This document shows positions 966 through 44,588 of a stretch of DNA of 64,000 nucleotides, one piece after another. The translations under genes and the position numbers were made by a program. The notes beneath the pieces are model-generated. The model ran no database searches. It saw only the letters and a list, made by a program, of their open reading frames with translations, and was not told the origin of the DNA. The stretch's first letter is position 1. Every line of letters starts with the position of its first letter. The stretch covers positions 1-64,000 of IMG/VR virus record IMGVR_UViG_3300015050_001523, one strand, 5' to 3'. The stretch is from a virus (Duplodnaviria; Caudoviricetes).

Positions 966-2342
966 ATGCTTCTTTTAAAAGAATATATTAGAAAATTTCT
1001 AAATGAAATAGATTTAGGAACAATTCAAAATGCTCTTGTTGCAAATAAAAAATTGCCCTTTGAAAACATCTTTAAAGGGAAGTTGAGAATTGTTATTCCT
1101 CTTGAAGATGAAAGCTTTTCTTTGTTAAAACAAATTATGGAAGAAGAAGGATATGAGGTTGATATTGCAAATAAAAAAGCTTATATCACAAAGACTTCAA
1201 GAGACGGAAAACAAAACAAGGTTGAATTAAGGCTTGGAAAGGCTGTTTCAAATCTTATAAAGATGAAAGAAAAAAATGGGGAAGATAACAATTTAGAAAA
1301 TTTAAAAAAGCTATATGCAAAATATAGCAGTGTTGGTTCTAGTTACTCAATCGTTCTAACAAGAGCGCCAATTGATGTTCTAAGAATGAGCGATTTTAGA
1401 GGGTTAGAATCATGTCATTCCAAAGGTAGTTCATATTGGCAGTGCGCCATTCAAGAAGCCCAATCAGGCGGAGCCATAGCTTATTTAGTAAGCTCCAAGG
1501 ACATTGAAGGGATTGACTTGCAACAAGATGAAGTCTTTACTGACAAAGACAGAGGGCTAAATGGAATAGCTCCAATTGGAAGGCTTCGTATAAGAAATTT
1601 TGAATATCCAAATGGAAATTTGGCAATCCCAGAATCCACAATATATGGTCAAGATATTGGAAATTTTGAATCATCTGTTGTTGATTTTTTAAGAGATTCT
1701 CAATCAGAGGCTATAGAAAACGACCTTCCAGAACCTTATGATATGGTTTTAAAAGGTGGTGGATATTCCGATACTGCAAGTTCCACTCTTTTGAATAGTT
1801 TTTTTGATACAGATTTTTATAAAGGAGAAGACATCGAAAATGAAAATAATGAAGGTTCATTATTTGAACAATTTGAAGAAGAAGCAAATGAAATGTGGCA
1901 TAATGCCTCTTCAAAAATACGAAATCTTAGTGTTACTTGGGAAGTTGTGGATAATGATGATGATGCCTTTGTTCAATGGAAAGCCGAAATAGAACTTCAA
2001 TATCCAGAATTGAAAATTACCAATGCTTATGGCCATAATGTCGTTTATGATTACAATATCTCAAAAAAGAATTTATTTATTATATCCAATAAAATGAACA
2101 ATGTTCTAAATGTAAGAGGTTGGCGATTTGATGCATATGAAGCAAATCAATTAAATAATGGTTATTGGGTGTTTAGATTAGATCCAATGGAAGATAGCAC
2201 TGGCCATCCTGATGAATTTAATGCCTTTCTTCAAGACTGTATAAAATTTGAAAGAGAATTTATTAGAATAAAAGAAGTTTGGGATAGATTTTATATAGAG
2301 ACGGCCGAAAAAAGATATAATGAAATTATGGAAGAAAAATAA
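966..2342 (+). CDS. Hypothetical protein, probably virion-associated (LLKEYIRKFLNE leader; RMSDF...SCH...YWQCA motif)
   Basis: 458-aa ORF; ATATTTAT 6 nt upstream; N-terminal leader shared with other genes in the window. Confidence 0.8.
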   Translation: MLLLKEYIRKFLNEIDLGTIQNALVANKKLPFENIFKGKLRIVIPLEDESFSLLKQIMEEEGYEVDIANKKAYITKTSRDGKQNKVELRLGKAVSNLIKMKEKNGEDNNLENLKKLYAKYSSVGSSYSIVLTRAPIDVLRMSDFRGLESCHSKGSSYWQCAIQEAQSGGAIAYLVSSKDIEGIDLQQDEVFTDKDRGLNGIAPIGRLRIRNFEYPNGNLAIPESTIYGQDIGNFESSVVDFLRDSQSEAIENDLPEPYDMVLKGGGYSDTASSTLLNSFFDTDFYKGEDIENENNEGSLFEQFEEEANEMWHNASSKIRNLSVTWEVVDNDDDAFVQWKAEIELQYPELKITNAYGHNVVYDYNISKKNLFIISNKMNNVLNVRGWRFDAYEANQLNNGYWVFRLDPMEDSTGHPDEFNAFLQDCIKFEREFIRIKEVWDRFYIETAEKRYNEIMEEK

Positions 2343-2343
2343 T

Positions 2344-2670
2344 TTATACTTCTGGATATTGTGATATTGAACCTGCTTTTATTTTTTGATAATGTAGATC
2401 AAAAAATAAAATACCTAAATTTGCAGCGGCTGTTCCATGGTCTTTAGAGCTAGAATATGTATCTTCTATTGAGGTTGGTCTAGAAACTTTAACAACAAGA
2501 ATTGCGCTATCTCCTGCTCCATCAGGAGGGTCAACTTCTCCAAATGTAATAACTCTTTGCATATATTGATCACTTGGCGTGTATGAACTTGAGACAGAGC
2601 CAGTAATCCATCCTGAGCCAGCTGGCAACGTTCCGTTGTGTATTATTGACCAAGCATAAGAATATTCCAT
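2344..2670 (-). CDS. Small beta-rich protein resembling the C-terminal module of phage fibre/structural proteins
   Basis: 108-aa ORF filling the gap between convergent genes; EDTY...LGILFFDLHYQ...GS pattern. Confidence 0.6.
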   Translation of the reverse strand: MEYSYAWSIIHNGTLPAGSGWITGSVSSSYTPSDQYMQRVITFGEVDPPDGAGDSAILVVKVSRPTSIEDTYSSSKDHGTAAANLGILFFDLHYQKIKAGSISQYPEV

Positions 2671-2703
2671 AAAAATTCTTTAATATAAAAATCTGTTTGA
2701 AGA

Positions 2704-2712
2704 TGTTATACT
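2704..2712 (+). promoter_or_regulatory. Extended -10 promoter (TGnTATACT) 7 nt before dnaE ATG; predicted leaderless transcript
   Basis: TG-T-TATACT at 2704-2712, ATG at 2720, no Shine-Dalgarno. Confidence 0.55.
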
Positions 2713-2719
2713 TGGCCAG

Positions 2720-5700
2720 ATGGCAAAAGTTCCAAACAGATTTTTTGGTTTACATGCGCATTCAGGCGCTAGCTCATATGATGGACTTGGGAAACCATCA
2801 GATCATTTTGATTTTGTTTTGAAAAATGGCGGAGATGGAATGGCCATTACAGAACATGGACATATGAATTCTTATGCTTCTGCATTTAAAGCTTATGAAG
2901 CTTTATTAAAATCGGGAACAAAGTTCAAATACATTCCTGGAATTGAAGCTTATTTTCATCCGTCATTAAGTGATTGGGAAAATATCAAAAAAAACAAACC
3001 AGAATCTGGCGCTGCTGTGCTTCGTCCGTTGACTAGCACCCAAGATCTAACTAGCAATTATCCAGTAAATCCAGAAGAGCTAAGTTTGGTAGATAATGAA
3101 GAAATGGGTACTTCAACAATAGAAGATGAAAATGCATCAAAAAGAATATTAAGTCCTTTGAATCGTCGCCATCATCTTGTTTTGCTTCCAAAAAATAGCC
3201 AAGGACTTCAGGATTTATTCAAGCTAACATCTTTTGGATATTCTAAAGGATTTTATAGATTTCCAAGAATTGACCATTCTATCATAAGAGAAGTAAATAA
3301 AGAAAAAAACATAATAGCATCTTCTGCTTGCTTGGCTGGTCAACCAAGTTATGAAATGTTTCAGGAATGTTTAGATGTTGATTGGGATAATGTAACTTAT
3401 GATTTGGTAAAACAAAGAAAAAATAAAATCATGCCTAAGCTTCGCGCTATGGCTGAGCAAAATATAGAGACATTTGGAATAGATAATTATTTTTTGGAGC
3501 TCCAATTTAATAAATTGGAACCTCAACACGCCATTAATTATTTACTAATGGAGCTTTCAAAAGAAACTGGAATTCAACTGATTGCAACAGCAGATAGTCA
3601 CTATCCTGGAAGAGACAAATGGAAGGCTAGAGAAATGTATAAACGCATTCGGCCTGGAAATTGGAAAGATGATGATAATTTTCCAAAAAGTGTTGATGAT
3701 TTAAAGTGTGAGTTATTCCCTAAAAATGCAGAACAAATGTGGGAAGAATATTTATCGCATAAAAATCGATATGATTTTTATGATGATGAAATAGTATGTT
3801 CTGCGATTGAAAGATCATATGACGTTGCTCATGAAATGATCGGAGAAATAAATCCTGATAGAAAAATAAAGCTTCCAAATTATACGGTTCCTGTTGGAGA
3901 AAAACCAATGCAGGCATTGACAAAAATGTCAATTGAGGGGTTGAAAAAAATGGGCCTTTCAAATGACATTCAATATGTAAGCCGTCTAAAAGAAGAGCTG
4001 CAAATGATCAAAGATAAAAAATTTGCAAAATATTTCTTAACGATGAAAGCAATAACAGACATTGCGCACAAAAACATGTTGGCTGGATATGGTCGTGGCA
4101 GCGCGGTTTCGAGCCTTGTTTGTTATGTTCTTGGAATAACAGGAATAGATCCAATCAAATACAATCTTTTGTTTGCTAGATTCTTGTCGAAAGACAGAAA
4201 AGAACTCCCAGATATTGATTCAGATTTTTCAGATAGAGATCTTTTAAGAAAGCTACTGGCAGAAGAATTTGGAGAAGACAATGTTGTTGCAATCTCGAAT
4301 ATAAATTCATTAAGTTTAAAAACTTTAGCAAAAGATATCTCAAAATTTTACGGTATTGAATTTACTGAGGTAAATGATGCTGTTAGATTTGTTGACAAAG
4401 ATATTGTTGATGGAGGGAAAAAGGAAGAACCTCCAATAGATAAAACAGAGCTTAAGTTCAATTTTGAAGAAGCAATGAAGTATTCTTCAAAATTTATAGA
4501 ATTTATTGACAGGCATCCATATGTTGGAGAACATATTCAAGAATTGATGGGAGAACAACGCTCTTTATCTCGTCATGCTGGAGGTATTATCCTTTCTGAA
4601 GACATTCAAAATAGAATGCCTGTTATTGTTTCAAAAAATGTAAAACAGACTCCATGGACAAAAGACTATCTTGAAAATTTTGGATGGGTAAAGTATGATC
4701 TTCTTGGGCTTGAAACATTAAAAATAATTGAAAGATGCATCTCTTTAATTCTTCAAAGGCATGAAAATAATAATAATCCATCTTTTAATGATATAAAAAA
4801 ATGGTATGATGAGCATCTTCATCCAAACGTTATTGATTTAGATGACCAACATGTTTATGAACACATTTATCATGAAGGAAGATATGCGGGAATTTTTCAG
4901 GTTTCGCAAAGAGATACCCAAAAATTTTTTACAGAAGCAAAGCCAACAAACATTGTTGATATTGCCGCCCTAACCTCAATTTATCGACCTGGCCCAATGG
5001 GTGCGAATGTGCATAAAAAGTACATCAAGGCAAAAGCACACCCAGAGAAGATTGTATATAAACATCAATTAATTAAAGATGTTCTTCAAGAAACTTATGG
5101 ATTCCTTGTATTTCAAGAGCAGGCGATGCGACTTGGAAATATTGTTGGTGGAATGACTTTGGATGAGACGGACACTTTAAGAAAAGTTGTCTCTAAAAAA
5201 TATAAGCCAGAAGATCCAATGTATGTAAAAGCAATGGAGATGGAAAAGGTTTTTATTGAAGGAGGGATTAAGAATGGTATAGAAAGGCACGTTCTTGAAG
5301 AGCTTTATCATAATATTAAAGAATTTGCAAAATATTCGTTCAACGCTTCCCATGCTCTCAGTTATGGCATCAATTCATATCTTTGCGCTTGGCTATTAAC
5401 GTATTATGAACCTGAATGGCTTTGTGCATATATTGAAACACAACTTTCAAAGCCAGATGAAAAAGCAAAGGCAATCTCAGAATTAAAAAGCTTTGGATAT
5501 GACTTTGCAAAGATTGACATTAATAAGGCAACTGATCATTGGACGGTTGTTGATGGAGATAAAAAATTGATGCCAAGCTTTTTGTCCTGCAAAGATGTTG
5601 GACCTTCTGCTGTTTTGGAGATTATTGAAAAAAGACCTTATTATGACATTTATAGTTTTTTATGGAATGAATCTGGTGCTTGGAATCATAGCAAATTCAA

Positions 5701-6283
5701 CAAAAAGAACTTTAATGTTCTAACAAAAATTCAAGCATTTGATAGTTTGGATTGTGTTGGGGAAGGAAAGCTGTTCAAAAATTATGCTCACATGCATAGA
5801 ACCATTATAGACAACTGGAATGTATTAAAGAAATGCCTCAAAAAAGATAATTTTGATTCTCAATGTCAAAAACTTGATAATTTTGCTGCGGAAGCAAATG
5901 ATCAAGATTGGAGCACAGAAGAAAAGCTTGAGATTTACAAATCATTAATGGGAGAAACAAATCTTGATTTAATTATTCCAAAAAAGATTCAAGAAAGACT
6001 ATATGCGAAAGGATATTCTTCAATTGATTCCTTAACTGAAGAACAATCAGGAGCTTTGTGCTGGTTTGTTGTTGAGGGTATTGAAAAGAGAAAAACAAAG
6101 CATGGAAAGTCTTACTTGATTCTTCAGGCTTCTGGATTAAGTGGAAAACTTGAAGGAATCAAGATTTGGGATTGGGATGAAAGTGTTCAATTTTCAAAAA
6201 ATACTGGATATAGAGCCTATGTTGAGCGCGACAATTTTGGATTTAAGTTAAAAATAAATCAGATTTTTGAAATCTCAAAATAG
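2720..6283 (+). CDS. dnaE: DNA polymerase III alpha subunit (family C)
   Basis: PHP HAHSGASSYDG, RGSAVSSLVCYVLGITGIDP, catalytic PDIDSDF, SRHAGG, KYDLLGL, GIFQ, YRPGP, FNASHA motifs; C-terminal OB-like region. Confidence 0.97.
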   Translation: MAKVPNRFFGLHAHSGASSYDGLGKPSDHFDFVLKNGGDGMAITEHGHMNSYASAFKAYEALLKSGTKFKYIPGIEAYFHPSLSDWENIKKNKPESGAAVLRPLTSTQDLTSNYPVNPEELSLVDNEEMGTSTIEDENASKRILSPLNRRHHLVLLPKNSQGLQDLFKLTSFGYSKGFYRFPRIDHSIIREVNKEKNIIASSACLAGQPSYEMFQECLDVDWDNVTYDLVKQRKNKIMPKLRAMAEQNIETFGIDNYFLELQFNKLEPQHAINYLLMELSKETGIQLIATADSHYPGRDKWKAREMYKRIRPGNWKDDDNFPKSVDDLKCELFPKNAEQMWEEYLSHKNRYDFYDDEIVCSAIERSYDVAHEMIGEINPDRKIKLPNYTVPVGEKPMQALTKMSIEGLKKMGLSNDIQYVSRLKEELQMIKDKKFAKYFLTMKAITDIAHKNMLAGYGRGSAVSSLVCYVLGITGIDPIKYNLLFARFLSKDRKELPDIDSDFSDRDLLRKLLAEEFGEDNVVAISNINSLSLKTLAKDISKFYGIEFTEVNDAVRFVDKDIVDGGKKEEPPIDKTELKFNFEEAMKYSSKFIEFIDRHPYVGEHIQELMGEQRSLSRHAGGIILSEDIQNRMPVIVSKNVKQTPWTKDYLENFGWVKYDLLGLETLKIIERCISLILQRHENNNNPSFNDIKKWYDEHLHPNVIDLDDQHVYEHIYHEGRYAGIFQVSQRDTQKFFTEAKPTNIVDIAALTSIYRPGPMGANVHKKYIKAKAHPEKIVYKHQLIKDVLQETYGFLVFQEQAMRLGNIVGGMTLDETDTLRKVVSKKYKPEDPMYVKAMEMEKVFIEGGIKNGIERHVLEELYHNIKEFAKYSFNASHALSYGINSYLCAWLLTYYEPEWLCAYIETQLSKPDEKAKAISELKSFGYDFAKIDINKATDHWTVVDGDKKLMPSFLSCKDVGPSAVLEIIEKRPYYDIYSFLWNESGAWNHSKFNKKNFNVLTKIQAFDSLDCVGEGKLFKNYAHMHRTIIDNWNVLKKCLKKDNFDSQCQKLDNFAAEANDQDWSTEEKLEIYKSLMGETNLDLIIPKKIQERLYAKGYSSIDSLTEEQSGALCWFVVEGIEKRKTKHGKSYLILQASGLSGKLEGIKIWDWDESVQFSKNTGYRAYVERDNFGFKLKINQIFEISK

Positions 6284-6304
6284 AACATATTGTATACTTA
6301 GCTC

Positions 6305-7426: not shown

Positions 7427-7427
7427 A

Positions 7428-8104: not shown

Positions 8105-8117
8105 TGGAAAAAATATT

Positions 8118-8402: not shown

Positions 8403-8420
8403 AGAAAGTATGATCAGATC

Positions 8421-15653: not shown

Positions 15654-16082
15654 TTATTTCAAAGTGTTTTTAACAATCTTTGAAATAAAGGAACGAAATT
15701 GAGATTCTTTTATTTCGCCATATTCAATAGGATCACTAGGTGATTTTCTTCGAATTGGTTTTTTTGATCCGCGAGCGATATCAGCTGTTCTCATTTGGGT
15801 TTGAGTGTCTTCTGCTCTTTTTTTTACTTGTGGCGGCGCGATTTTAAGACCTGGGGCTGTTTGGGCAGCAGCATCGTCATCAAACCATTTGTCGTCAAGT
15901 TCCATATCTCCCTCTGGCTCAGCAGGGGGCGTTTGTTTTTTTGAAGCAAATTTATCTCTCATTTTCTGAAGAAATTTCAATTCTTGAATTTGTTCTTCGG
16001 AAAGATTTCGAGATTCGCTAACCATTTTCATATATTCGCTAGCAATAACTCTTTTAAGGCCACTTTTTGATGTATGAATCAT
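15654..16082 (-). CDS. Hypothetical protein, probably virion-associated
   Basis: Start refined to MIHTSKSGLKRVIASE; C-terminal ESQFRSFISKIVK motif. Confidence 0.75.
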   Translation of the reverse strand: MIHTSKSGLKRVIASEYMKMVSESRNLSEEQIQELKFLQKMRDKFASKKQTPPAEPEGDMELDDKWFDDDAAAQTAPGLKIAPPQVKKRAEDTQTQMRTADIARGSKKPIRRKSPSDPIEYGEIKESQFRSFISKIVKNTLK

Positions 16083-17437: not shown

Positions 17438-18139
17438 ATGAATAATACTGATTTACGAAAAATACTTAGAAAAGGGTTAGAATTGGATAGTTCTGAAAAT
17501 TTAAATGAAGCTTATGCTGCGCAAGAAAAAACGTATGATTTAAATACAGATTTAATTCTTGCAAAAACAAAAGATTCTCACAAACAACTTTATAAAGGAT
17601 ATGTCCAAAATCTAAATTTGGCAAGTTCAAAGCTCGATACTACTGATAAAAAATCAGCTTCTGATACTTCTGATTTCCGTTCAATTAAGCTTGATGAGCA
17701 ATACAGCATGAATGCTGTATATTTGCATGAATTGTATTTTGCAAATATATCAGACCCATATTCTGAAATTAATGTTGACAGCCTATCTCATATGAGATTG
17801 AATCGAGATTTTGGAACCTTTGATAATTGGCAAATGGACTTTAGAGCTTGTGCAATGGCCACAAGAAACGGCTGGGCTGTTTGCGCATATAGTACATATT
17901 TGAAAAAATATGTGAATATGATTATTGACGGACATAATTCTCATTGTTTGATTGGAACTTATCCAATTATTGTTCTTGATATGTGGGAACATGCAAGAAG
18001 AGATTATCTTGAAAAAAAGAATGAATATATTCGTGCAATGATGAAAGAATTAAATTGGAATGTAATTGAAGAAAGAGTTCGCAGATGTGAACTTATTTCA
18101 CAAGCTTTGAGTTCTGGAGGTAAGCAATCATGGGTTTAA
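17438..18139 (+). CDS. Fe/Mn superoxide dismutase family protein with N-terminal extension
   Basis: SHKQLYKGYV, LHELYFANI, DFGTFDNW, GWA, LDMWEHA metal-ligand motifs. Confidence 0.88.
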   Translation: MNNTDLRKILRKGLELDSSENLNEAYAAQEKTYDLNTDLILAKTKDSHKQLYKGYVQNLNLASSKLDTTDKKSASDTSDFRSIKLDEQYSMNAVYLHELYFANISDPYSEINVDSLSHMRLNRDFGTFDNWQMDFRACAMATRNGWAVCAYSTYLKKYVNMIIDGHNSHCLIGTYPIIVLDMWEHARRDYLEKKNEYIRAMMKELNWNVIEERVRRCELISQALSSGGKQSWV

Positions 18140-18696
18140 CATTAAAAGATCTTTTCATTTTAAAGAGAATATTGAAAGAAGAAACAATAAGGCTTTCAGA
18201 AGATAGTTTAGATTCTCAAATTGATAGTGTTTTATTAAGGTATCAACAAGAGGCTTCTCTTGAAGATAATGAGCTTGAAGATGCTGGTCTAAATGAAGGA
18301 TATACTATGCCAGAAAACTGGAAGCTGCTTCTTAAAGAGGCTAAAGACGACGAAGAAGAAGAAACTCCTATGTCTGGTGATGATATAATGAGTGTAGGAG
18401 ACGACATGCCACGGGCTTCGAAACCTTCTGACCCGAAACAACAAAAGCTAAATATTGATGATTTCGCACAAAAAGTTTCTAATTTATATGAGCATTATGA
18501 TAGCTTACTTAATGTGAAGCCAGTAATTGTACATAGGGCAATGCATCTCCTTGAAAAAGGGTATCCAGCAGACCTTATTCAAGAATTTCTAAAAATTCTT
18601 GAGCGAGAATTTGGTATTACCTTAGAAGGCGACAAAGAAGAAGAAAGTGGAGCAGCCCCATTCGGTGGTTCTCCTGGGCCTATTGGTGTTGGCTAA
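18130..18696 (+). CDS. Hypothetical acidic protein, probably virion-associated
   Basis: LKRILKEE leader; coupled ORF. Confidence 0.8.
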   Translation: MGLTLKDLFILKRILKEETIRLSEDSLDSQIDSVLLRYQQEASLEDNELEDAGLNEGYTMPENWKLLLKEAKDDEEEETPMSGDDIMSVGDDMPRASKPSDPKQQKLNIDDFAQKVSNLYEHYDSLLNVKPVIVHRAMHLLEKGYPADLIQEFLKILEREFGITLEGDKEEESGAAPFGGSPGPIGVG

Positions 18697-21906: not shown

Positions 21907-22700
21907 TGCCTGCTAAAATAATGAATTCGTCCCAATTAAATCTTTTTTTAAAGGTTTTAGCAGAAGAGAGTGTAAAACGGGCTTATATGTCTGAATTATC
22001 TTCTTCTAGCCCTTTATTTGAAGAAGATCCTCTTTTTGGAGGAGGTTCTGAAGGTGGAGATGAAGACAAAAAAGAAGATGGAGATGAAAAAGCTGATGAT
22101 GAATCAGGTGATAGCGGAGGAGAAGATGATCCTTTAGCCGGAATGGGGGATGAAGAGCCTGCTGCCGAAGAACCGGCAGCTGAACCGGCACCTGCTGAGC
22201 CCGCTGCTGAGCCTAAAAAGGTTGAGTCACGTCCAACTCCATTGACTTTGGAATTGGGAGAAATAACCACTGACGGACTTGTATCCACATTGAATATGAT
22301 AAGAGCAGGAAGGTCATTTAAAGAACCAGAAATTTCTGCTGAAATTGGAAAATATTTTGAAAATCAATTAAATGATAGCGAAAGATTAGCTTTGGCAACA
22401 TTTCTAAGTGCATTAAGAGATATTACTTCAGGAAAACCGGCAGAAGATGCACCGGATCCAGGTGATGAGAATATAGAAATTGATGCAAATGATCAAGAAA
22501 GAGAAGAGGTTCGACCTAGAAAATCTTCAAAGCCTGCTTTGCAACAAAAACAACAACGCGAAAGGCCACAACCGCCAGGACAAATGTCAAGAATGTCAAA
22601 AGGAACAGAAGATACAAGTCCTCCAATTCAAGTCGGCCCAAGAAATAGTCAATTAGCTGAAGAATATAGAACACATATTCGATCTCTTTTGATAAAATAA
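21906..22700 (+). CDS. Acidic low-complexity protein, probably virion/prohead-associated
   Basis: LNLFLKVLAEES leader, D/E/G- and PAAE-rich linker, C-terminal EEYRTHIRSLL. Confidence 0.8.
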   Translation: MPAKIMNSSQLNLFLKVLAEESVKRAYMSELSSSSPLFEEDPLFGGGSEGGDEDKKEDGDEKADDESGDSGGEDDPLAGMGDEEPAAEEPAAEPAPAEPAAEPKKVESRPTPLTLELGEITTDGLVSTLNMIRAGRSFKEPEISAEIGKYFENQLNDSERLALATFLSALRDITSGKPAEDAPDPGDENIEIDANDQEREEVRPRKSSKPALQQKQQRERPQPPGQMSRMSKGTEDTSPPIQVGPRNSQLAEEYRTHIRSLLIK

Positions 22701-25132: not shown

Positions 25133-25143
25133 TGGCAATATTT

Positions 25144-26286
25144 ATGATTATGTTAGACCAGAAAGAACAACTTCTTAGAGATTTTTTAAATGAAACATTA
25201 AAGGAGTATGATGGTGGAGATGATTATGGAGGAAGTGGCGGTCAAGGAGTTTCTGATGATTTTATAAAAGGTATATTTGATGCCTTTATTGATCCATTAA
25301 GGCATACAGCAGCATTTGTTGAAAGATTTTCATCAGAAGTACAAAAGTTTGCCGGAAAATTGTCTGAAGATGTATTGGCATTTAGTATTCCTGGATATAA
25401 GGCGAATTATTCAAAATTTGAAAGACAACATAATGAAAGATTAAATTCTATTCAAGACAAATATAAAGAAGTCTTTGCAAGAACTGAAGCAAATTTATTT
25501 ACTGGAGATGCTGCTCTTATGGCATTTTTGTTTTCTCCTTACAAATATACAACTGGCCGCATATTGAAAACTGTTCCTCAAACTGCTCTAAGTCTCATTG
25601 ATATGTTTGCAGGAGGAAATCCAAGTGTAAAGCAAATGACCGATCGGGCACGAGAAGTGACCGGAAGATTTGGACATATTGGAAGAATGCGTGGTGGTCC
25701 ATCTTCTCCAAAACCTATAGCAATTGATGTTGGGGCAAAAAAACCTATTGCCGAACCTGCTATGAAACATTTTAAATGGAGAGAGCAAAAAAAACAACCA
25801 AAAGGTCAAGATTATAGTCGGAGATTTTATGGAAAAACTCATGATGAAGCCTTTATTGGAAGAAGAGATGAAGAAATAATTCAAGAAGGAATAAAAGAAC
25901 TTCTTGGAAAGCTTGTTGGCGCATTTAAAAACGCTCCCGAATTAGAAAGGGCATTTGAAGAAAGTCCACTTGCTCAAAAAATGCAAAAAGATGCAATCGA
26001 CATGACAGAAGAATACGTTTCTGGTGTTGTAGAGATGACGAAAGAGCATATAGATTCTTTGAAGAGTACAGAATCTCTTGACAAAGCAACAGGTGGCAAG
26101 TTTTCTACCTTAATCCAAAAAAAAGGGAAAGATGAAACTAAAAAAGTTGCACAATTGGTTGTTGGGAGCAGCAAGAAGGGGATTAAAGATATTGCCATTC
26201 AAAACATGACAGAAAAAATGAATGGTATGCCTGAAGGTCTAAAGAAAATTTATCAATCTGGTATTAAGCAAATAGAATCTTTGTGA
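25144..26286 (+). CDS. Hypothetical protein, probably virion-associated
   Basis: Start refined (25144 or 25150); QLLRDFLNETLKE leader. Confidence 0.8.
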   Translation: MIMLDQKEQLLRDFLNETLKEYDGGDDYGGSGGQGVSDDFIKGIFDAFIDPLRHTAAFVERFSSEVQKFAGKLSEDVLAFSIPGYKANYSKFERQHNERLNSIQDKYKEVFARTEANLFTGDAALMAFLFSPYKYTTGRILKTVPQTALSLIDMFAGGNPSVKQMTDRAREVTGRFGHIGRMRGGPSSPKPIAIDVGAKKPIAEPAMKHFKWREQKKQPKGQDYSRRFYGKTHDEAFIGRRDEEIIQEGIKELLGKLVGAFKNAPELERAFEESPLAQKMQKDAIDMTEEYVSGVVEMTKEHIDSLKSTESLDKATGGKFSTLIQKKGKDETKKVAQLVVGSSKKGIKDIAIQNMTEKMNGMPEGLKKIYQSGIKQIESL

Positions 26287-29731: not shown

Positions 29732-30565
29732 ATGAGTAGATATAAAGATAGACTTTCAGGCGGTCTTGCTGACAATTCTATTCCAAGCGATTTCAATAAA
29801 GCTGATTTAAAGGATGGAATAAGTCATGAAATGGAGCATACAGACGATCCAAAATTGGCAAGAGAAATTGCAATGGATCATTTATCAGAAGATCCACTTT
29901 ATTACAAGAAATTAAAAAAGATTGAAGAATCTGTTAGAAAATTTACAAGATCATTTGTAAACGAAATGTTTTATGTAACAAAAAGGATTCCTCAGCAATT
30001 AATAGACGATTTAAAAGAGAGAGGATTAGATATTGCTCATTTTGGCCCATCTTATGGGTGGAATCCAAAAACTGATGGATTGACAGCAAATCAAATTGAG
30101 GCTATTGTAAGTGTCTTAGAAAGAAGGATAGAAGATGAAAAAGAACTTTCGCCGGAAGAATCTGCGTCAAACTATAAAATTGAAGATTTGGCTATTGCGA
30201 ATGTACTTGGAAATAAAAAGGATCCAGCGACAATTCAAAAAGCCAAAATATTGAATATGTCTTATTTGATTGATGATGTAAAAGATTTGGTAATTGCTGG
30301 CCAGAGTTTTAATGAACATTGGGACCAGCATCTTGATAAGGTTCTCGACCCTGGACAAGATTTTCCTTGGAATAATGAAGAAACTCCAAAAAAAGATGAT
30401 AATCCATTGGATCCTTATGGAGATGCAAATTCTACTTTAAATAAAACTCAAATAAGTAGCCCTCCTTCAATTTCAAAAAATCAACGAGCTGGGGTCTCTC
30501 GCGGAAGCGGCCGAACAAGTGGCGGAAGAGTCCCAGGAGGGACAAGGCAAGGATTTCACGGATGA
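29732..30565 (+). CDS. DUF5661-like domain protein
   Basis: GISHEMEHTDD...AREIAMDHLSEDPLYYKKL. Confidence 0.8.
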   Translation: MSRYKDRLSGGLADNSIPSDFNKADLKDGISHEMEHTDDPKLAREIAMDHLSEDPLYYKKLKKIEESVRKFTRSFVNEMFYVTKRIPQQLIDDLKERGLDIAHFGPSYGWNPKTDGLTANQIEAIVSVLERRIEDEKELSPEESASNYKIEDLAIANVLGNKKDPATIQKAKILNMSYLIDDVKDLVIAGQSFNEHWDQHLDKVLDPGQDFPWNNEETPKKDDNPLDPYGDANSTLNKTQISSPPSISKNQRAGVSRGSGRTSGGRVPGGTRQGFHG

Positions 30566-31890
30566 TACTAAAAGAATATATTTTTCAATTTTTAATTGAA
30601 GGAAGAATTCAAGATGTTCAAAAAAAATATCCGAATGTAAATATTGATCTTTTGGCGAAAGGCGATCCGTCTTCGTCAAACAAGTATATTGAATGGATGG
30701 CCAAACAATTAAATTCTGATAATAATTTAGATCTTGAAGAAGTCATTACTGCTATTCAGTTATTCGATAAAATCTCAAATAGAATTCAATCAAATAAAAA
30801 AGATATTAATAATTATAAATCATTTGAAGAATTGATTAAATTGATTGATTCGGTTCCTCTTCAATCAAAAACAGCCGAAAAAAAGACTAGCAAAATTAAA
30901 GGCTCAACAAAGATTGGAGAAACTGAAGAATATTTTGTTTATAGAATTGATACACATGAAGCATGCACCTTAATGGGAAAAGGAACAAAATGGTGCATTA
31001 CAGAAAAAAATCCCTCAATGTGGAACAATTATACCAAAGGGCAAATTAAATTTTATTTTGCAATTAAGAAAAGTCCTAAAAATGACAATTTTGATAAAAT
31101 TGCAATGTCTATACCATTAGATAAAGAATTCGATAATAAAATTAGACTATTTGATGCACAAGATATTCAAATAGAAAATAATGTTGATTGGAAGGAAATT
31201 GTTGATGTTGCATTAAATAACCTTCCAGAAGTTCCTGTTTCAATTTCTCAGAAAATTGAAACAGGAAATGATGTATCAGATGAAGAAATTGCAAAATTTT
31301 TAGAGGATGATTTTTTTGATCAATATGTTTTTGCAATAGAACATCTTGGAGAAAAAAGAGTTATAAATTCATTTCAGTATGCTTGGCCAAATTCTAAATA
31401 TGGAATGCTAATGATTGGAATTTATGAAAGTCATTATGGAGATAATAATAAAAATCCAATAGATATATCTAAAAATAGAAGTGGAGAACTTTTTATAAAA
31501 GACAAATTAACTGATGACTTATTTAAATTAAGATATAAGGACCGAATTGAATATTTGAATAATTCTGGTCAAATTAGCAAAAAGACATGGCCAGCCATTG
31601 AATGGGCGAATGGAACACAAGTATGGATGATAGATGGAAAATACCATAGAAAAGACGGTCCTGCTGTTAGAAGAAATGATGGCGAAAAAAAATGGTATAT
31701 TAATGGAAAACTCCATCGAGAAGATGGACCAGCTGTTGAGAAAAAAAATGGTATAAATATATGGTATATCAATGGAGAACAACATCGTGAAGATGGTCCT
31801 GCTGTAGAATATCCAACCGGAGATAACGAATATTGGCTCCATGGAATCATTTATAGCGAAAAAGATTATTGGAAAAAGATAAATGGTTAA
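30562..31890 (+). CDS. Multidomain protein: leader, GTKWCI-motif domain, C-terminal HREDGPA repeats
   Basis: MILKEYIFQFLIE; DPS...KYIEW; HEAC..MGKGTKWCIT; three H(R)EDGPA-type repeats plus YSEKDYW. Confidence 0.85.
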   Translation: MILKEYIFQFLIEGRIQDVQKKYPNVNIDLLAKGDPSSSNKYIEWMAKQLNSDNNLDLEEVITAIQLFDKISNRIQSNKKDINNYKSFEELIKLIDSVPLQSKTAEKKTSKIKGSTKIGETEEYFVYRIDTHEACTLMGKGTKWCITEKNPSMWNNYTKGQIKFYFAIKKSPKNDNFDKIAMSIPLDKEFDNKIRLFDAQDIQIENNVDWKEIVDVALNNLPEVPVSISQKIETGNDVSDEEIAKFLEDDFFDQYVFAIEHLGEKRVINSFQYAWPNSKYGMLMIGIYESHYGDNNKNPIDISKNRSGELFIKDKLTDDLFKLRYKDRIEYLNNSGQISKKTWPAIEWANGTQVWMIDGKYHRKDGPAVRRNDGEKKWYINGKLHREDGPAVEKKNGINIWYINGEQHREDGPAVEYPTGDNEYWLHGIIYSEKDYWKKING

Positions 31891-38635: not shown

Positions 38636-38641
38636 GATTAA

Positions 38642-38669
38642 AGGATAGCCCAGTTTAGCCCGATGTCAA
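38642..38669 (-). promoter_or_regulatory. Sigma70-type promoter TTGACA-16-TATCCT
   Basis: -10 ends 6 nt before ATG 38635. Confidence 0.55.
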
Positions 38670-38676
38670 GCCCCAT

Positions 38677-39126: not shown

Positions 39127-39141
39127 TATTTATAGATATTG

Positions 39142-39399
39142 TCAAAAATTGTTTATTTTTATAACCATTTCAATTCTCATAACCCCATTAAAAATAAGAT
39201 AATTCTCAATTATAGATTTAAGAGATTTCCTCTTTTTGATTTCTTCCCAATATCCTTGCTCTGTAAAAGGATGACTATCTAAATAATAAACATTCATATT
39301 ACCAGGCCATTCAACAGCAGGACCGTCTTCTCGGTGAAGTTTATTATTTAAATAATGACGCTTTGTTCCAATGGCATCAATAATTAATCCATTTTTCAT
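39142..39399 (-). CDS. HREDGPA-repeat protein (single repeat)
   Basis: MKNGLIID...LHREDGPAVEW...YWEEIKKRKSL. Confidence 0.85.
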   Translation of the reverse strand: MKNGLIIDAIGTKRHYLNNKLHREDGPAVEWPGNMNVYYLDSHPFTEQGYWEEIKKRKSLKSIIENYLIFNGVMRIEMVIKINNF

Positions 39400-39418
39400 T
39401 AGATAATTCCTTTGTTAG

Positions 39419-39447
39419 TTTATAGCATTTTAAAATTTGGAAGTCAA
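39419..39447 (-). promoter_or_regulatory. Sigma70-type promoter TTGACT-17-TATAAA
   Basis: Upstream of an AAGGA SD and ATG 39399. Confidence 0.55.
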
Positions 39448-39455
39448 CAAATTTT

Positions 39456-39710
39456 TCAGATCTTTACAAGACAAGATTGGTCAATTTCAATAATTTCTTT
39501 ACCAACCACAACTTCATACCTATAAAGAACTCCAATTGAATTAAAGTCTTTTATTTCTTCTTTTTCAATAACATTCAAAATAATAGCTAATCGATTGTTT
39601 CTTCCGGCTTGCCGTTCATTTAGTTCTTTTTTTCTTTTTAATTCTGAACTATAATCTATTTTTACAAGTTCTCCAACACAAAACTTAAGATCTTCTTTCC
39701 TTGATGACAT
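39456..39710 (-). CDS. Small hypothetical protein (SH3-like pattern)
   Basis: FCVGELVKI...AIIL...YEVVVG. Confidence 0.7.
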   Translation of the reverse strand: MSSRKEDLKFCVGELVKIDYSSELKRKKELNERQAGRNNRLAIILNVIEKEEIKDFNSIGVLYRYEVVVGKEIIEIDQSCLVKI

Positions 39711-39728
39711 ATGGTATAATAGGCTATT

Positions 39729-40163
39729 GTGTTTGAAATAAAAAGAGTTAGAAAAACATTTAAAAACTTAATGATTCTTAGAGAAATGGATGATACCTGT
39801 TTTCCAGAAGATTCTTATGCGCCTTTAGGGCTTCGCAAATATTCTTGGTGGTTTGTTTATGATGAAAACAATAAAGCAGTTGCCTATGCTGTAGGTTGTT
39901 CTAAAAAAGACAAAAGTTATTTTTTAGCAAGAGCTGGCGTTTTGCCTGAACAAAGAGGGCAAAATATTCAACAAATCCTAATAAATGAAAGAGTTAATAT
40001 GGCAAAATCCCTAGGTCTAAAGAATGTTATCACCTACACAAGCATCAACAACCCTCCTTCAATTAAGAACTTGAAAAAATGTGGATTTGTGGAATGGGTT
40101 GATGCCCCAAATTACTGGAAGACAGAAAATTTTATATCATGGATTCTCAATATTGGCAATTGA
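39729..40163 (+). CDS. GNAT family acetyltransferase
   Basis: LARAGVLPEQRGQNIQ...N.PSIKNLKKCGF; TGnTATAAT 8 nt upstream. Confidence 0.88.
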   Translation: MFEIKRVRKTFKNLMILREMDDTCFPEDSYAPLGLRKYSWWFVYDENNKAVAYAVGCSKKDKSYFLARAGVLPEQRGQNIQQILINERVNMAKSLGLKNVITYTSINNPPSIKNLKKCGFVEWVDAPNYWKTENFISWILNIGN

Positions 40164-40315
40164 AATATTTCTAATTTTTATTAATAATTCTTTATTTTCT
40201 TTTAATTCTTCATTTTTTCTTTTTTGAATAATTAAAAGAGCTCGCAAAACAATTAATTTTTTATGAATTTTATTATAATTGTTTCCCAATTTCCATAAAG
40301 ATTTACCTTCCTATT

Positions 40316-41590
40316 TTAAGTATCTTCCATCTTTATTGTTATTTCGTTTGTTTCAAAGTTCAATGCGCCGGAAGGACAAAGAACCCAACATCTAGGAATT
40401 TTACAATCAGAGGGTTTATAGCAAAATCCATCTGTCATAAAGATTGCAGCATCAAATTTTGAATAATTTTCATTAATCCATAAAGTTGGAACATTGAAGT
40501 TTGTTCCTCCACGAGCAACCCGATCTGGGTTTATTTTTTCTCCTTTTCCCCAAGTAAAAATTTTGTCTTCAATAACTTTTGAATCAAAAGGAACAACAAT
40601 AAACTCTGTATATTCAGACAATTTTCCTAATTCAGAAAAAAACATTGCCAAAGATTCATTATCTACAGAGCCACTTTGATCAATGCAAATGACAATTCTT
40701 GCCATTCGCTTTCTTTTTCTTCCTGGATGAATATATGGATATCTTTTATTTATTCTCTTTAATGATGATGTGTATTCAATTGTGCAACTATTTCCAATGA
40801 AATTTCTTAATAAGTCTTTCCAGTCAACTGTTTCCTTAATTGACTCAAGAATCTTTAATTGCATTTCATTCGATACACTTCCCCAATGATTGCTTCGACT
40901 GCACATATCGGCAGAATCTTGAATAATTCTTTTTATGTTATTTTCAATAAATTCCTTTTCTTCAGACGAAATACCATCAGAAGGAGCCCAGCCTTCATGA
41001 TCATCAGCTGTTCCAATAATATTTGCATTTAATAATGATTCAAAAATATCACGATTATTATTGATTTGTTCATAATACCAATCAGCCGATTCTCCTTTTG
41101 GCCAACTAATCACAAGATCTTTAAATTGTTCTATTTGGCTTAAAGTTTCTTGGCTGTAAAAATGCTTATATTCTTCTGGTATTTCTATCCACTTTCCAGG
41201 AATTAGCCCGCCAGGAGGAAGTCTTTTTTCGTCAATTAAAGAATTGATTGCAAAATCAGTTGCAAAATTCCAAGCACGATCTAATTTTCCATTTAATATT
41301 TTTGCTCTTGAAGTAGTATGATTAAAAATAATATGCAAAAATTCATGGATTAGAAGTCCTTGTCTCTCTTGCCATGATAAATTATTAAAAAAATCTTCAT
41401 TATAATATAATATCATTTTTCCATTTTGAATACAAACACCAGCAGTTTCAAGTTCTTTTGTTTTGAATTTGTTTATATTCGCTGATATGTGACCATAAAA
41501 TGGTTCATCTATACTAAATTTTGAAAGAGTTTTTTCAAAATCATACTTATTCCATCTTTCACCCTTTATTTCTTCATCTTTTTTTTTCAT
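40316..41590 (-). CDS. DUF2201-type metallopeptidase-like plus VWA domain protein
   Basis: HEFLH (HExxH), WNFATDFAIN, IDQSGS (MIDAS), GGTNF, MTDG. Confidence 0.88.
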   Translation of the reverse strand: MKKKDEEIKGERWNKYDFEKTLSKFSIDEPFYGHISANINKFKTKELETAGVCIQNGKMILYYNEDFFNNLSWQERQGLLIHEFLHIIFNHTTSRAKILNGKLDRAWNFATDFAINSLIDEKRLPPGGLIPGKWIEIPEEYKHFYSQETLSQIEQFKDLVISWPKGESADWYYEQINNNRDIFESLLNANIIGTADDHEGWAPSDGISSEEKEFIENNIKRIIQDSADMCSRSNHWGSVSNEMQLKILESIKETVDWKDLLRNFIGNSCTIEYTSSLKRINKRYPYIHPGRKRKRMARIVICIDQSGSVDNESLAMFFSELGKLSEYTEFIVVPFDSKVIEDKIFTWGKGEKINPDRVARGGTNFNVPTLWINENYSKFDAAIFMTDGFCYKPSDCKIPRCWVLCPSGALNFETNEITIKMEDT

Positions 41591-42642
41591 TGAGTTGTCG
41601 CGGCAATCATCATGTCTGAAACATAATTTGAAAGAAGTTGGATATTTTCCATTTTTGTCTCAACAACTGTTAGCTTATCCCAAAATGAAATTTGTAACTC
41701 TGGCTTTAATATTCTAAAGAATTTAGATATATTTTTTGCTTGAGGCTTGGTCCACGGTTTTATTTTTTTATCTATACAATTATCAACAACTTTACTTATC
41801 GCAAGATTTAAGTGCTCTACTTGAAATTGAGTTAATCTATCTTCATTTTCTTCAAATCTATCAATAATATCTTCTGCTGTAATATGTTCAAATGGCCTTA
41901 GCAAGTATTGTTTAAACAACCCAGCAGAATGAATTCCGACAAAGCCAGAACAAACTGCAATAAATAATGATGAACTTTTATTTATATTTTTTGCTAGATC
42001 TGGATTGTTTTGGAAAACTGATGAAAGTCTCGTCCATGATCTTCTAGATGGGATTACATCATAGCTATTCTTTGTTGGTTCTTTTTCTAGCTCTGAAGGA
42101 TTTATTCTTATAAAGTCAAGAATTGGTCGATAAATATCACCTTCATTTTTTCCCCATTCAATCCATTCTTCTACTGAAGGATCAATATCTGCTATCCAAA
42201 AACGATCATATATAGCCGGATCAATATTGTTTACGCTATAATTTGAACCATGCTTTCCTCCATTTATTGCAGAGTAAATTCTACAATCTTCATGAATCAT
42301 CCTTCCTTGAATGGAACGGTCTAAAATAAGCTCCATCGCAGCCTGTTGGACTTCTTTAGAGCTTCTATCAAACTCATCTAAGAAAAGAACACATGGAGTT
42401 TTAGTTGCGCGTACAAACCAATCAAGTGGCAAGAAGTAAGTGCTTTCTCCATCAATTTTTGGAAGTCCAAGAAGATCTCCTTCAGTTAATTGAGATAATC
42501 TCCTATCAATTACTGGAAGGCTAAAATCTTCAGCAATTTGCTTTATAACGCTACTTTTTCCTATTCCATGCTTTCCTCGAATAAGGACTGAAATATTATT
42601 AGGAAGCATTTTTGCTACCTTTTTGAATGTTATAAAGTCCAT
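41587..42642 (-). CDS. MoxR-like AAA+ ATPase
   Basis: GKHGIGKS, LFLDEFDR, DPAIYDRF, PSRRSW; ATGA-coupled to the VWA gene. Confidence 0.9.
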   Translation of the reverse strand: MDFITFKKVAKMLPNNISVLIRGKHGIGKSSVIKQIAEDFSLPVIDRRLSQLTEGDLLGLPKIDGESTYFLPLDWFVRATKTPCVLFLDEFDRSSKEVQQAAMELILDRSIQGRMIHEDCRIYSAINGGKHGSNYSVNNIDPAIYDRFWIADIDPSVEEWIEWGKNEGDIYRPILDFIRINPSELEKEPTKNSYDVIPSRRSWTRLSSVFQNNPDLAKNINKSSSLFIAVCSGFVGIHSAGLFKQYLLRPFEHITAEDIIDRFEENEDRLTQFQVEHLNLAISKVVDNCIDKKIKPWTKPQAKNISKFFRILKPELQISFWDKLTVVETKMENIQLLSNYVSDMMIAATTQ

Positions 42643-42686
42643 ATCCTATATTATTTTGTTGAAACCTAATTTTGCAAAAATACTGT

Positions 42687-42896
42687 TTAAAAGTTCTCTA
42701 TTAGTATTTCACGAATATATTTGCGCAAATTGGCTTCTTCCATTCCTCCAACCTCTCCAGATGAGCAGCTTTCATTTCCATTTAAAGAATAAGAAGGATA
42801 ACCCCATCCCAACCCAACAAATCCCATTTTTGCAGCTTTCTTTTTCTTCTTCTTTTTTTTCTTTTTATAATATCGATTTTCAAAAATATCTTCCAT
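42687..42896 (-). CDS. Small protein with poly-Lys tract and C-terminal LRKYIREIL motif
   Basis: Start refined to MEDIFENR; ten consecutive Lys. Confidence 0.6.
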   Translation of the reverse strand: MEDIFENRYYKKKKKKKKKKAAKMGFVGLGWGYPSYSLNGNESCSSGEVGGMEEANLRKYIREILIENF

Positions 42897-42900
42897 ATTA

Positions 42901-43182
42901 CTAATTACCAACCGAATCATCAAATTTAGCTTTTTTTAATTCTTTTGATTTGATATCTTCCATTGAAATAATTGTATTTTTTATGTTTTTTATATTGTCT
43001 TCTGCATCATCAAGAAGCTTAAGATAATGTTTTTTATAAATATTAAATTTATTGGATGCAGACTTTTCAATTTCAATATCAAATAAATTTCCTTTAGATC
43101 TTAAAAGTCTAATATTTGATAATAAAATTTCTTCTAATCCTTTTCTTAGTATTGATTGTTTTTTATATGATTTTAATTTCAT
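42901..43182 (-). CDS. Hypothetical protein
   Basis: 93 aa. Confidence 0.65.
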   Translation of the reverse strand: MKLKSYKKQSILRKGLEEILLSNIRLLRSKGNLFDIEIEKSASNKFNIYKKHYLKLLDDAEDNIKNIKNTIISMEDIKSKELKKAKFDDSVGN

Positions 43183-43256
43183 GTTAATAAATCTATTTTA
43201 CTAACTTTATTGAAAATAATATACTAGATTTATGAGCCATTGACAGTCAGCCCAAT

Positions 43257-43574
43257 TTGGGTCAAAAATCTTATAAATGTTCATGTAATAACGATCTTAT
43301 TTATGGAATTGTAAAATCTAATAAAGTTAGAAGACTTACATTTTCAAAAGATCTTGCTTATTTTATTAAGGGAAAAAATCAAAATCATGAAATTTGGCTT
43401 CTTGACTTGGTACAGGTAGGTCTATCAGAAGGTCCTTGTATTTATGGAATAGTTGGCCATAAAAATAGTCTTTTAAGAGCTACAGTTTCATACGAAGAAG
43501 CTTTGTTCTTGACAGAAGGATCTAATAGATATATTGAAGGATACAAGATAAGAGGGAAAAAATTAATAGAATAA
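43257..43574 (+). CDS. Hypothetical protein
   Basis: 105 aa, TTG start uncertain; stop abuts the tRNA. Confidence 0.65.
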   Translation: MGQKSYKCSCNNDLIYGIVKSNKVRRLTFSKDLAYFIKGKNQNHEIWLLDLVQVGLSEGPCIYGIVGHKNSLLRATVSYEEALFLTEGSNRYIEGYKIRGKKLIE

Positions 43575-43654
43575 GTGCTTATAGTTCAAAGGTAGAACAT
43601 CGAACCTAATGAATTCGAAAATCCTGGTTCAAGTCCAGGTGAGCACTTTTACCA
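43575..43654 (+). tRNA. Atypical tRNA, anticodon most simply read as AAU (Ile); distorted anticodon arm
   Basis: Acceptor GTGCTTA/TGAGCAC, D-arm GTTC/GAAC with GG, T-arm CCTGG-TTCAAGT-CCAGG, anticodon arm TCGAA-CCTAATGAA-TTCGA; ACCA lies 4 nt past the stem. Confidence 0.78.
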
Positions 43655-43680
43655 TTCCAAAGATTATGATATCATAAATT

Positions 43681-43854
43681 ATGAAATACATGGCTAGAGA
43701 ACTTTTAAGTGGACAAGAAGTCTTAGATAATTGTCGTGATATTGAGTTGCGAGAATGTAATAACCCAACAGATGCAACTAATTTTACTAAAGAAATAGAA
43801 AAACAAGGGTTTGAATTAAAATTAAAAAGACAAAAAAAGATTATAGTAAAATAG
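43681..43854 (+). CDS. Small hypothetical protein (57 aa, below the track cutoff)
   Basis: Hand-translated MKYMARELLSGQEVLDNC...; fills the gap after the tRNA. Confidence 0.55.
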   Translation: MKYMARELLSGQEVLDNCRDIELRECNNPTDATNFTKEIEKQGFELKLKRQKKIIVK

Positions 43855-43888
43855 TTCTTGTAGAGCTTTTTTTTGAAAGGAAAAAGAA

Positions 43889-44080
43889 ATGAATAGGTTG
43901 GCTTTGGCAATCTCTATTCTCGAAATGAATCTTGATGAATGGGAACCAATTCGCCAAAAAGAACTATTTATTATAGTAAATAGAAAAACAAAACAGCAAA
44001 TTGGATATGCAAAATCTCTTGTGTCTGCAATTTTAAAAGCAAGAGATTTTGAAATGGAAAAATTAAATAGAAAGAAATAA
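43889..44080 (+). CDS. Small hypothetical protein
   Basis: 63 aa, AAGGA SD, terminator downstream. Confidence 0.7.
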   Translation: MNRLALAISILEMNLDEWEPIRQKELFIIVNRKTKQQIGYAKSLVSAILKARDFEMEKLNRKK

Positions 44081-44084
44081 TAAA

Positions 44085-44113
44085 AAAGCCAAGATAAATT
44101 TTATCTTGGCTTT
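44085..44113. terminator. Bidirectional terminator
   Basis: AAAGCCAAGATAA-ATT-TTATCTTGGCTTT. Confidence 0.72.
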
Positions 44114-44131
44114 AAAATTTTAATTATTGAA

Positions 44132-44305
44132 TTATATTATTTTAAACCAATTTTCAATTTGTTGTTTTTGGTCCATCGAAAGATCACGCCAAATATCATC
44201 AAGCTTTTCAATAATCTCGCCTTCATTATCTTCTGAAAGTAACCCAAGATCACGCATAACAATCATTTGTTTGATTGTATTTTGATATAATTGTATATCA
44301 TCCAT
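44132..44305 (-). CDS. Small hypothetical protein (57 aa, below the track cutoff)
   Basis: Hand-translated MDDIQLYQNTIKQMIVMRDLGLLSED... Confidence 0.55.
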   Translation of the reverse strand: MDDIQLYQNTIKQMIVMRDLGLLSEDNEGEIIEKLDDIWRDLSMDQKQQIENWFKII

Positions 44306-44312
44306 TTAGAAT

Positions 44313-44588
44313 TTATTCTTCTTGTCTTTTTGCTTTGAAGTGTTTTAATTGCTTAACCTGGCTTAAAACTGCTTGATATAATTCTTCAGGATCTAATTGA
44401 TGCGCAGCAGCTTTTGCTTCAACTTTATTTTGAAGATCAGCTGCTAATCTCGCTGCTAATTGCATAACTGCTGCAAGGCCACTTGTTTGTGGCATTTCTT
44501 CCTCATCATTTGAACTAAATTCATGCAATGCGCGCATTTCTTCTAAAACGATTCTTTTTAATTTTTCTTTTGAAATTTTGATTGACAT
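44313..44588 (-). CDS. Hypothetical protein, probably virion-associated
   Basis: MSIKISKEKLKRIVLEE leader; GGGAG SD. Confidence 0.75.
   Translation of the reverse strand: MSIKISKEKLKRIVLEEMRALHEFSSNDEEEMPQTSGLAAVMQLAARLAADLQNKVEAKAAAHQLDPEELYQAVLSQVKQLKHFKAKRQEE

Follow-up and report, generated by a model that had tools for sequence, protein, structure and literature searches.

A candidate capsid-targeting peptide on unrelated proteins of an uncultured T4-like jumbo phage

The DNA analysed here (hereafter the window) comprises the initial 64 kb of one 322,518-bp virus record (33.6% GC), labelled G000. An earlier note had described a recurrent amphipathic peptide, L(R/K)xxI(R/K)xxLxE, on many unrelated proteins encoded in the window and had compared it with the capsid targeting sequence (CTS) found at N-termini in bacteriophage T4. 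Targeting by such a sequence is textbook for T4 and the T-even phages. All 12 peptides quoted in that note were found at or beside the places where it had put them. Its consensus proved too loose: the true motif, hereafter the tag, is the tighter [IL][IL][KR][ED][YF][IL]xxx[LV]xE.

G000 encodes a prohead protease of the gp21 family (Peptidase_S77, PF03420; 280692-281129; 96 bits in a profile search), which is adjoined by genes for the portal and for a major capsid protein (MCP) of the T4 type. The enzyme shares 35-46% identity with those annotated in T4-like Microcystis, Flavobacterium and Synechococcus phages. This kinship and the adjacent portal and MCP genes indicate that G000 is a distant, uncultured T4-like jumbo phage, so that the analogy with T4 is testable. 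The relatives compared were the close relative G006 (a contig of 76.7 kb, with 79% identity between its MCP and that of G000), the jumbo phages G001 (323 kb) and G003, which are more distant, and G004, G005 and G007.

Tagged proteins of the window

The tagged genes, their leaders and two further tag copies are as follows (scores from a position-specific scoring matrix, PSSM).

952-958, plus strand: ATATTTA box 7 nt before the ATG of g966, a candidate late promoter giving a near-leaderless mRNA
966-1007, plus strand: tag of g966, MLLLKEYIRKFLNE, 31.9 bits, with E14 as the last residue before the predicted cut
966-2342, plus strand: g966 cargo protein of 458 amino acids (aa), from a widespread phage family (100 protein-database homologs, 260 IMG/VR loci)
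25138-25144, plus strand: ATATTTA box before g25150
25150-25206, plus strand: leader of g25150, made of MLDQKEQ and the tag LLRDFLNETLKE (tag at 25171-25206), 28 bits
25150-26286, plus strand: g25150 cargo protein of 378 aa, predicted mature isoelectric point (pI) 9.1, no family match, G006 ortholog 45% identical
30562-30600, plus strand: tag of g30562, MILKEYIFQFLIE, 31.8 bits
30562-31890, plus strand: g30562 cargo protein, an N-domain (paralog of head-cluster g290049 by all-vs-all BLAST) followed by MORN-like repeats
42690-42896, minus strand: basic open reading frame (ORF) of 69 aa (pI 9.5), ending in the tag copy NLRKYIREILIE at 42696-42731
G000:C1:283261-283908: g283261, a head-core-cluster protein with an internal tag copy, found with a PSSM trained on G006

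In the g966 family, M1 and the final Glu of the tag (E14) are invariant in an alignment of 16 homologs with 26-47% identity. The AlphaFold (AF2) model of g966 places the tag in a helix of residues 2-11 that is separate from the confident body and has a pLDDT (predicted local distance difference test) below 50. Proteins of this family always start with a helix ending in Glu; they are of about 700 aa in most phages and share the core PIDVLRMSD..SCHS.GG.YF.CAIQEA..GG.IAYLV. None of the carriers had a Pfam or PHROGs match in profile searches, and a structure-model search with the body of g966 yielded no PDB fold match, ADP-ribosyltransferase included. Single-protein searches for related loci with g966 and g30562 found no close relatives, and tblastn searches with P0014 and g28413 against cultured phages found no match.

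The true start of g25150 is probably 25150, and not 25144 as in the earlier note, because the ATATTTA box lies at 25138-25144. The MORN-like family has 30 members in G000. Among them, 28 begin directly with the repeat, and a tag precedes it only in g30562 and g144630, which argues that the tag is an add-on module. The repeat of the 30 paralogs reads MKNGL..YYLNDxLHREDGPA.

The 69-aa ORF, which the earlier note had also listed (at 42687), carries a good copy of the tag at its C-terminus: with 17.4 bits, it is the best six-frame match outside the training set. Its layout is MEDIFENRYY, a tract of ten lysines, a Gly/aromatic stretch and then the tag copy. No ortholog of it was found in G001, G006 or G007. 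It lies just upstream of genes for a MoxR-like AAA ATPase (41587-42642) and a DUF2201 metallopeptidase/VWA protein (40316-41590). Outside the window, g283261, encoded between the protease and MCP genes, contains the copy LIREYIHLLFE at residue 113, which could be the contact helix imitated by the cargo tags or an internal protease site. Tag-like N-termini are also found on the head-cluster proteins g281639, g290049, g279773 and g293214.

A tight motif at the N-terminus

When every position of 485 ORFs was scanned with the PSSM, five sites scored 28-32 bits, all of them N-terminal, and the remainder reached at most 14.8 bits. The five core tags are those of g966 (MLLLKEYIRKFLNE), g30562 (MILKEYIFQFLIE), g25150 (MLDQKEQLLRDFLNETLKE), g174470 (MNIIKEYIRALLKE) and g291559 (MILKDFIQELLKE). 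They have 12-13 residues, finish in L-x-E or V-x-E and can be read as a short amphipathic helix in which positions 1, 2, 5, 6, 9 and 10 are hydrophobic. According to all-vs-all BLAST, the five carriers are not paralogs of one another. Since the DNA upstream of the five genes is unrelated and their tag codons differ synonymously, the tag is conserved as a peptide and not as DNA.

Simple patterns were compared with shuffled termini. Genome-wide, the N-terminal 25-mers contain two matches to the strict pattern of the earlier note, L[RK]xx[ILV][RK]xxLxE (0.0 in 300 shuffles), and seven to a loosened one (1.0 +/- 1.0 in shuffled termini, two in internal segments). By itself, [LI]xE shows no N-terminal enrichment (102 at N-termini, 80 in shuffles, 106 in internal segments). 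A PSSM built from only two seeds, the tags of g966 and g30562, gave g174440 a score of 20.3 bits, above the maximum of 18.8 in 40 shuffled proteomes, and three of its five best new matches are N-terminal where about 6% would be expected. Furthermore, a PSSM built only from six G006 tags ranked g966, g283261, g179588, g211834, g174440 and g25150 on top in G000. Five of these six sites directly follow the start Met, the sixth being the one inside the head-core-cluster protein; the chance of such a ranking is about 1e-5 to 1e-3, varying with the definition of "N-terminal".

A MEME-style search of N-termini, such as the earlier note had proposed, was carried out in a home-made log-likelihood-ratio version. 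It first recovered only the MORN-like paralogs and, once paralogs had been collapsed, did not separate real from shuffled termini, since it is prone to overfitting and its filters had removed two of the five tags. A scan of IMG/VR with the back-translated tag yielded five loci, all short ORFs and judged to be chance matches.

These data define a tagged set of at least five to seven proteins in G000. The predicted core consists of g966, g25150, g30562, g174470 and g291559. Weaker copies are probably carried by g179588 and g211834, and g144630, g318456 and g18130 are possible members, as are the head-cluster proteins g290049, g281639, g279773 and g293214.

Conservation and lineage-specific versions in related phages

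The orthologs of G006 keep the tag, and the sequence directly after it diverges:

g966: MLLLKEYIRKFLNE in G000, MNVRLLREFLKGFLLE in G006
g291559: MILKDFIQELLKE followed by NIVKMQ in G000, MLLREYIRSVLLE followed by RREYDI in G006
g211834: MSNLLRKFINYLVTE in G000, MLLLREYMRILFE in G006
g25150: ..QLLRDFLNETLKE followed by YDGG in G000, ..KMLREYVRLISE followed by DGDGG in G006, where the protein starts MSGDLNKRQHKMLREYVRLISE followed by DGDGG

An unbiased test, in which reduced-alphabet 5-mers enriched within the first 15 residues were sought, brought a tag class to the top in three relatives: the LLREY class in G006 (6/8 occurrences N-terminal, Bonferroni-corrected 1e-3) and the NFKEW class in G001 (10/13, 7e-7) and G003 (13/19, 9e-9). 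The same test gave no tag class in G004, G005 and G007, which indicates that it does not yield one automatically. The most enriched N-terminal motif of G005 is a different one (12/28, Bonferroni-corrected 4e-6): in G005 and G007, many small proteins begin with MK(V/I/L)GDLVK and probably represent a paralogous small-protein fold unrelated to the tag.

In G001, 17 of the 34 proteome-wide matches to a 5-residue core begin within the first six residues, where 0.9 would be expected. Eighteen proteins of this phage are tagged (for instance MKTFNEWLIE, MKSFNEWLNE, MNFKEWLLSE and MRDFLDFLNE), with only one paralogous pair among them, and five of the 18 genes flank those for the portal, the protease and the MCP. 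At about 188266-189775 of G001, three adjacent small genes all begin with MKTFNEWL, an arrangement reminiscent of the variable internal-protein locus in the T-even phages. At least 13 proteins are tagged in G003, and the consensus of both phages is MK(T/S)F(N/K)EWLxE.

The G000 and G001/G003 versions are linked through the orthologs of g966, which start with MLLLKEYIRKFLNE in G000, MNFKNWLEQNINE in G001 (G001_28126) and ..IEFKNLLSE in G003 (G003_248525). Likewise, g293214 and its G001 ortholog G001_209123 each carry the version of their own phage.

A promoter-like box before tagged and structural genes

A box, ATATTTA(T), is found in sense orientation upstream of about 27 G000 genes. Its distance from the ATG shows a sharp maximum at 5-9 nt, implying that the mRNAs are near-leaderless. 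The box is enriched in the structural module, where it precedes the MCP gene, a scaffold-like gene and other structural genes (for example upstream of 285998, 283980, 290049 and 292030). It also precedes four of seven tagged genes, as against 5.6% of all genes. The late promoter of T4, TATAAATA, was considered as well and is not used by the structural genes of G000.

Other instances and neighbouring genes

The remaining peptides of the earlier note and some other genes of the window are located as follows.

17438-17509, plus strand: propeptide-like extension of a protein with a Pfam Sod_Fe_C match, ending in NLNE followed by AY
18142-18183, plus strand: possible degenerate tag of g18130, LKDLFILKRILKEE (G006 ortholog VDKFLESFMLEVLKEE followed by T at the same place)
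21936-21968, plus strand: N-terminal helix of g21906, LNLFLKVLAEE (LALYFKVLAEE in G006)
29933-29965, plus strand: internal VRKFTRSFVNE of g29732, directly behind a DUF5661 domain and scoring low in every scan; not a tag
16035-16058, minus strand: LKRVIASE of g15654
44538-44561, minus strand: LKRIVLEE of g44313, unsupported
7-942, 39142-39399, 48104-48740, 54261-55042, 56962-58212 and 59675-60088: MORN-like paralogs, with at least 20 further genes in G000
46458-48086, plus strand: GroEL-type chaperonin, judged by its N-terminal sequence, with a homolog in G007 (43% identity)

About one third of the examples of the earlier note belong to the tag family. Hence, one portable N-terminal motif holds for the tight core subset and not for the other two thirds. 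The instances at 966, 30562 and 25144 are members of the tight 12-mer family (28-32 bits). Membership of the one at 18130 is only plausible: ..VLKEE followed by T is retained in the G006 ortholog, but the PSSM score of the G000 peptide is low.

Other instances seem to be parts of individual families. The superoxide dismutase (SOD)-like family has 759 homologs, mostly on phage contigs of up to 375 kb, and the 120 homologs that were inspected keep MKKxDVxKVIRExL..LNE followed by (A/S)YVAQPK. The peptide at 17438 therefore looks like a propeptide of this family and not like the portable tag: it belongs to an extension of 24 residues (25-30 across the family) that travels with this family. The Fe/Mn-SOD-like protein could represent a conserved enzyme of the head interior that has a propeptide of its own. 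Its gene (17438-18139, plus strand) lies in a module with acidic and membrane proteins that is syntenic with G006 (about 14-23 kb). Both termini of g21906, whose C-terminal YRTHIRSLL aligns with FRAYIKTIL of G006, are conserved only among its own orthologs.

For the instances at 44588, 16082, 15654 and 29732, nothing was found beyond an enrichment of L[KR][KR][IV][ILV] (5/10 occurrences N-terminal, 1.2 expected) that is itself post hoc. The LKRI-type examples, and most C-terminal and internal ones, thus appear to be family-specific or compositional. At the position of g15654, G006 has a g291559-like gene that is tagged; g15654 was considered as a diverged homolog of g291559, but the two are not significantly similar (E 0.19 and 0.9).

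Proposed function and alternative explanations

The tight motif is probably a lineage-specific form of the T4 CTS, cut after Glu. The proposal of the earlier note, an N-terminal CTS-like tag ending at a Glu cleavage site, thus stands for the core subset, on account of the gp21-type protease, the unrelated carriers, the conservation in orthologs, the difference between phage lineages and the near-exact T4 CTS on 13-18 proteins of relatives. The further statement of that note, that the tag defines the injected proteome of the phage, is an inference. The tag helix would dock the protein onto the scaffolding core during prohead assembly, the gp21-type prohead protease would then cut after the terminal [LIV]-x-Glu, and the mature protein would stay in the head and enter the host with the DNA. 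The internal copy in g283261, the tag-like N-termini of the head cluster and the shared ATATTTA box lend indirect support to head loading.

Several observations weigh against this interpretation. The statistics within G000 alone are modest: the unbiased 5-mer test is not significant there, because two of the five starts had been misplaced by the longest-ORF rule, and pairs of tags score 37-38 as best ungapped 12-mers among all protein pairs, where the chance maximum is 42-44. The signal resides in a multi-member family and in its position, not in single pairs. Moreover, G004, G005 and G007 have the protease, yet no shared tag is detectable in them. The G000 tag is longer than the T4 CTS and loosely similar to it, only the core LKEYI resembling YQEFI, and the good copy of the 69-aa ORF is C-terminal, a position that the T4 model does not predict. 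The predicted mature cargo proteins (116-444 aa, pI 4.7-9.1) are not small and basic like the internal proteins IPI-III. High acidity, which the earlier note had described as frequent among the carriers, is not a property of the core set either. The ATATTTA box is only a candidate for the late promoter of the clade. Finally, the g966 family was not found by tblastn in 50,697 cultured-phage records.

A broader proposal, which is possible but which we hold only tentatively, is that distant T4-like jumbo phages use short N-terminal "address codes" that differ by lineage and co-evolve with the head core, the cargo mimicking a helix of a core protein. Such mimicry is suggested by the internal copy in the head-core protein g283261. 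G000 and G006 would use LLKEYIxxxLxE, and G001 and G003 the T4-like MKTFxEWLxE. Docking from the C-terminus, as in the 69-aa ORF, might also occur.

Alternatively, the tag might be a docking helix, possibly uncleaved, for a shared partner other than the prohead core, such as the GroEL encoded by the phage itself, an assembly or membrane factor, or a chaperone for tail or baseplate. A generic amphipathic helix would suit such a role, as would the chaperonin gene at 46458-48086, the distance of most G000 tagged genes from the head cluster, the C-terminal copy and cargo that is not IP-like. We nevertheless find this unlikely, because the terminal [LIV]-x-E fits the specificity of gp21 and its Glu is invariant in the g966 family, the tags of G001 and G003 are nearly the CTS of T4 (PMC8442874), five of 18 tagged genes in G001 lie beside the portal, protease and MCP genes and one copy is inside a head-core-cluster protein of G000. 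Nor is it probable that the peptides have no common function, being either chance matches among K/E/I/L-rich N-terminal helices of an AT-rich genome or parts of individual families. The pairwise scores within the chance range, the absence of N-terminal enrichment of [LI]xE, the SOD-like and g21906 termini that travel with their own families and the post hoc nature of the LKRI-type enrichment all agree with this idea. However, it does not account for five of the six top matches of the G006-trained model being N-terminal, for the de novo recovery of a tag class in G001, G003 and G006 with G004, G005 and G007 as negative controls, or for orthologs that keep the tag beside diverged sequence. We reject it for the core set, and it is the likely explanation for the instances at 44588, 16082, 15654 and 29732.

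Two further explanations have very little in their favour. A shared leader could serve as the recognition sequence of a modifying enzyme (radical-SAM/SPASM), and one N-terminal leader on unrelated proteins would fit in principle. However, no PF04055 match was found in G000 (93% complete), G001 or G006 by a search that was positive in 14 of 14 control genomes and in the tagless G007, which makes this very improbable. Least credible of all is a similarity at the DNA level, either a copied cassette of promoter, ribosome-binding site and first codons or an element at the 5' end of the mRNA. Several tagged genes do share the ATATTTA box, but their upstream sequences are otherwise unrelated, their tag codons differ synonymously, and g30562 has no box and starts within an overlap with the stop of the upstream gene. 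Loading into the head by a CTS-type peptide therefore remains the explanation that we favour.

Significance and comparison with known systems

Of all phage products, those injected together with the DNA come up against host defences first; for instance, IPI of T4 blocks a restriction enzyme. To our knowledge, injected proteins change rapidly in evolution and hardly ever contain a recognisable domain. If the address-code proposal is correct, the genomes of uncultured phages would directly disclose the complete set of injected proteins, which would number up to about 18 and be mostly functionally obscure. The tag would list five to seven proteins in G000, one of them from a family that counts hundreds of relatives among aquatic phages, and 13-18 in related jumbo phages. 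The CTS of T4 has already been used to load foreign proteins into heads, and the tag versions would supply new, possibly mutually non-interfering peptides for this purpose. The lineage-specific versions would also represent a natural experiment on the co-evolution of tag and scaffold core. No paper was found that reports such tags from phages other than the T-even group; for uncultured T4-like jumbo phages, this holds both for tags of the CTS type and for versions that differ by lineage.

The CTS of T4 is MKTYQEFIAE (PMC8442874). It is common to otherwise unrelated internal proteins; in IPIII, the first 10 residues suffice to bring a protein into the head, with residues 4 and 7 being important for targeting, and residues 8 and 10 for the cut by gp21 (PMC9026906 section 2.6; PMC3012670). 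Like it, the G000 tag is a short N-terminal peptide found on unrelated proteins of one phage, amphipathic, with aromatic or aliphatic key positions on one face of the helix and then [LI]-x-Glu, the cleavage motif of gp21, in a genome that encodes a gp21-type protease. The peptide of G001 and G003 is nearly identical to that of T4 (MKTFNEWLIE and MKTYQEFIAE). In contrast, G000 has a consensus of its own, (I/L)(I/L)(K/R)(E/D)(Y/F)(I/L)xxx(L/V)xE, of 12-13 residues and so far read only from genomes. Its system also differs by a larger number of carriers (at least five to seven, and 13-18 in relatives), by one C-terminal copy and one internal to a head-core protein, and by cargo that is larger and not basic, whereas IPI-III are small (8-20 kDa), highly basic and associated with DNA.

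In this respect, the carriers resemble the packaged ADP-ribosyltransferase Alt and gp24/gp23 of T4, large non-basic head proteins with short N-terminal propeptides that gp21 cuts after Glu (PMC9026906 section 2.5). Unlike the G000 tag, these propeptides are not shared between unrelated proteins. In giant phages of the SPN3US/phiKZ type, many inner-head proteins are likewise processed by a related protease; their propeptides, thought to target the prohead, are typically longer than 100 residues, an example of a cleavage site being ALE-111 (PMC5694885). The tags of G000, in contrast, are short and of the T4 type, and their cleavage motif differs.

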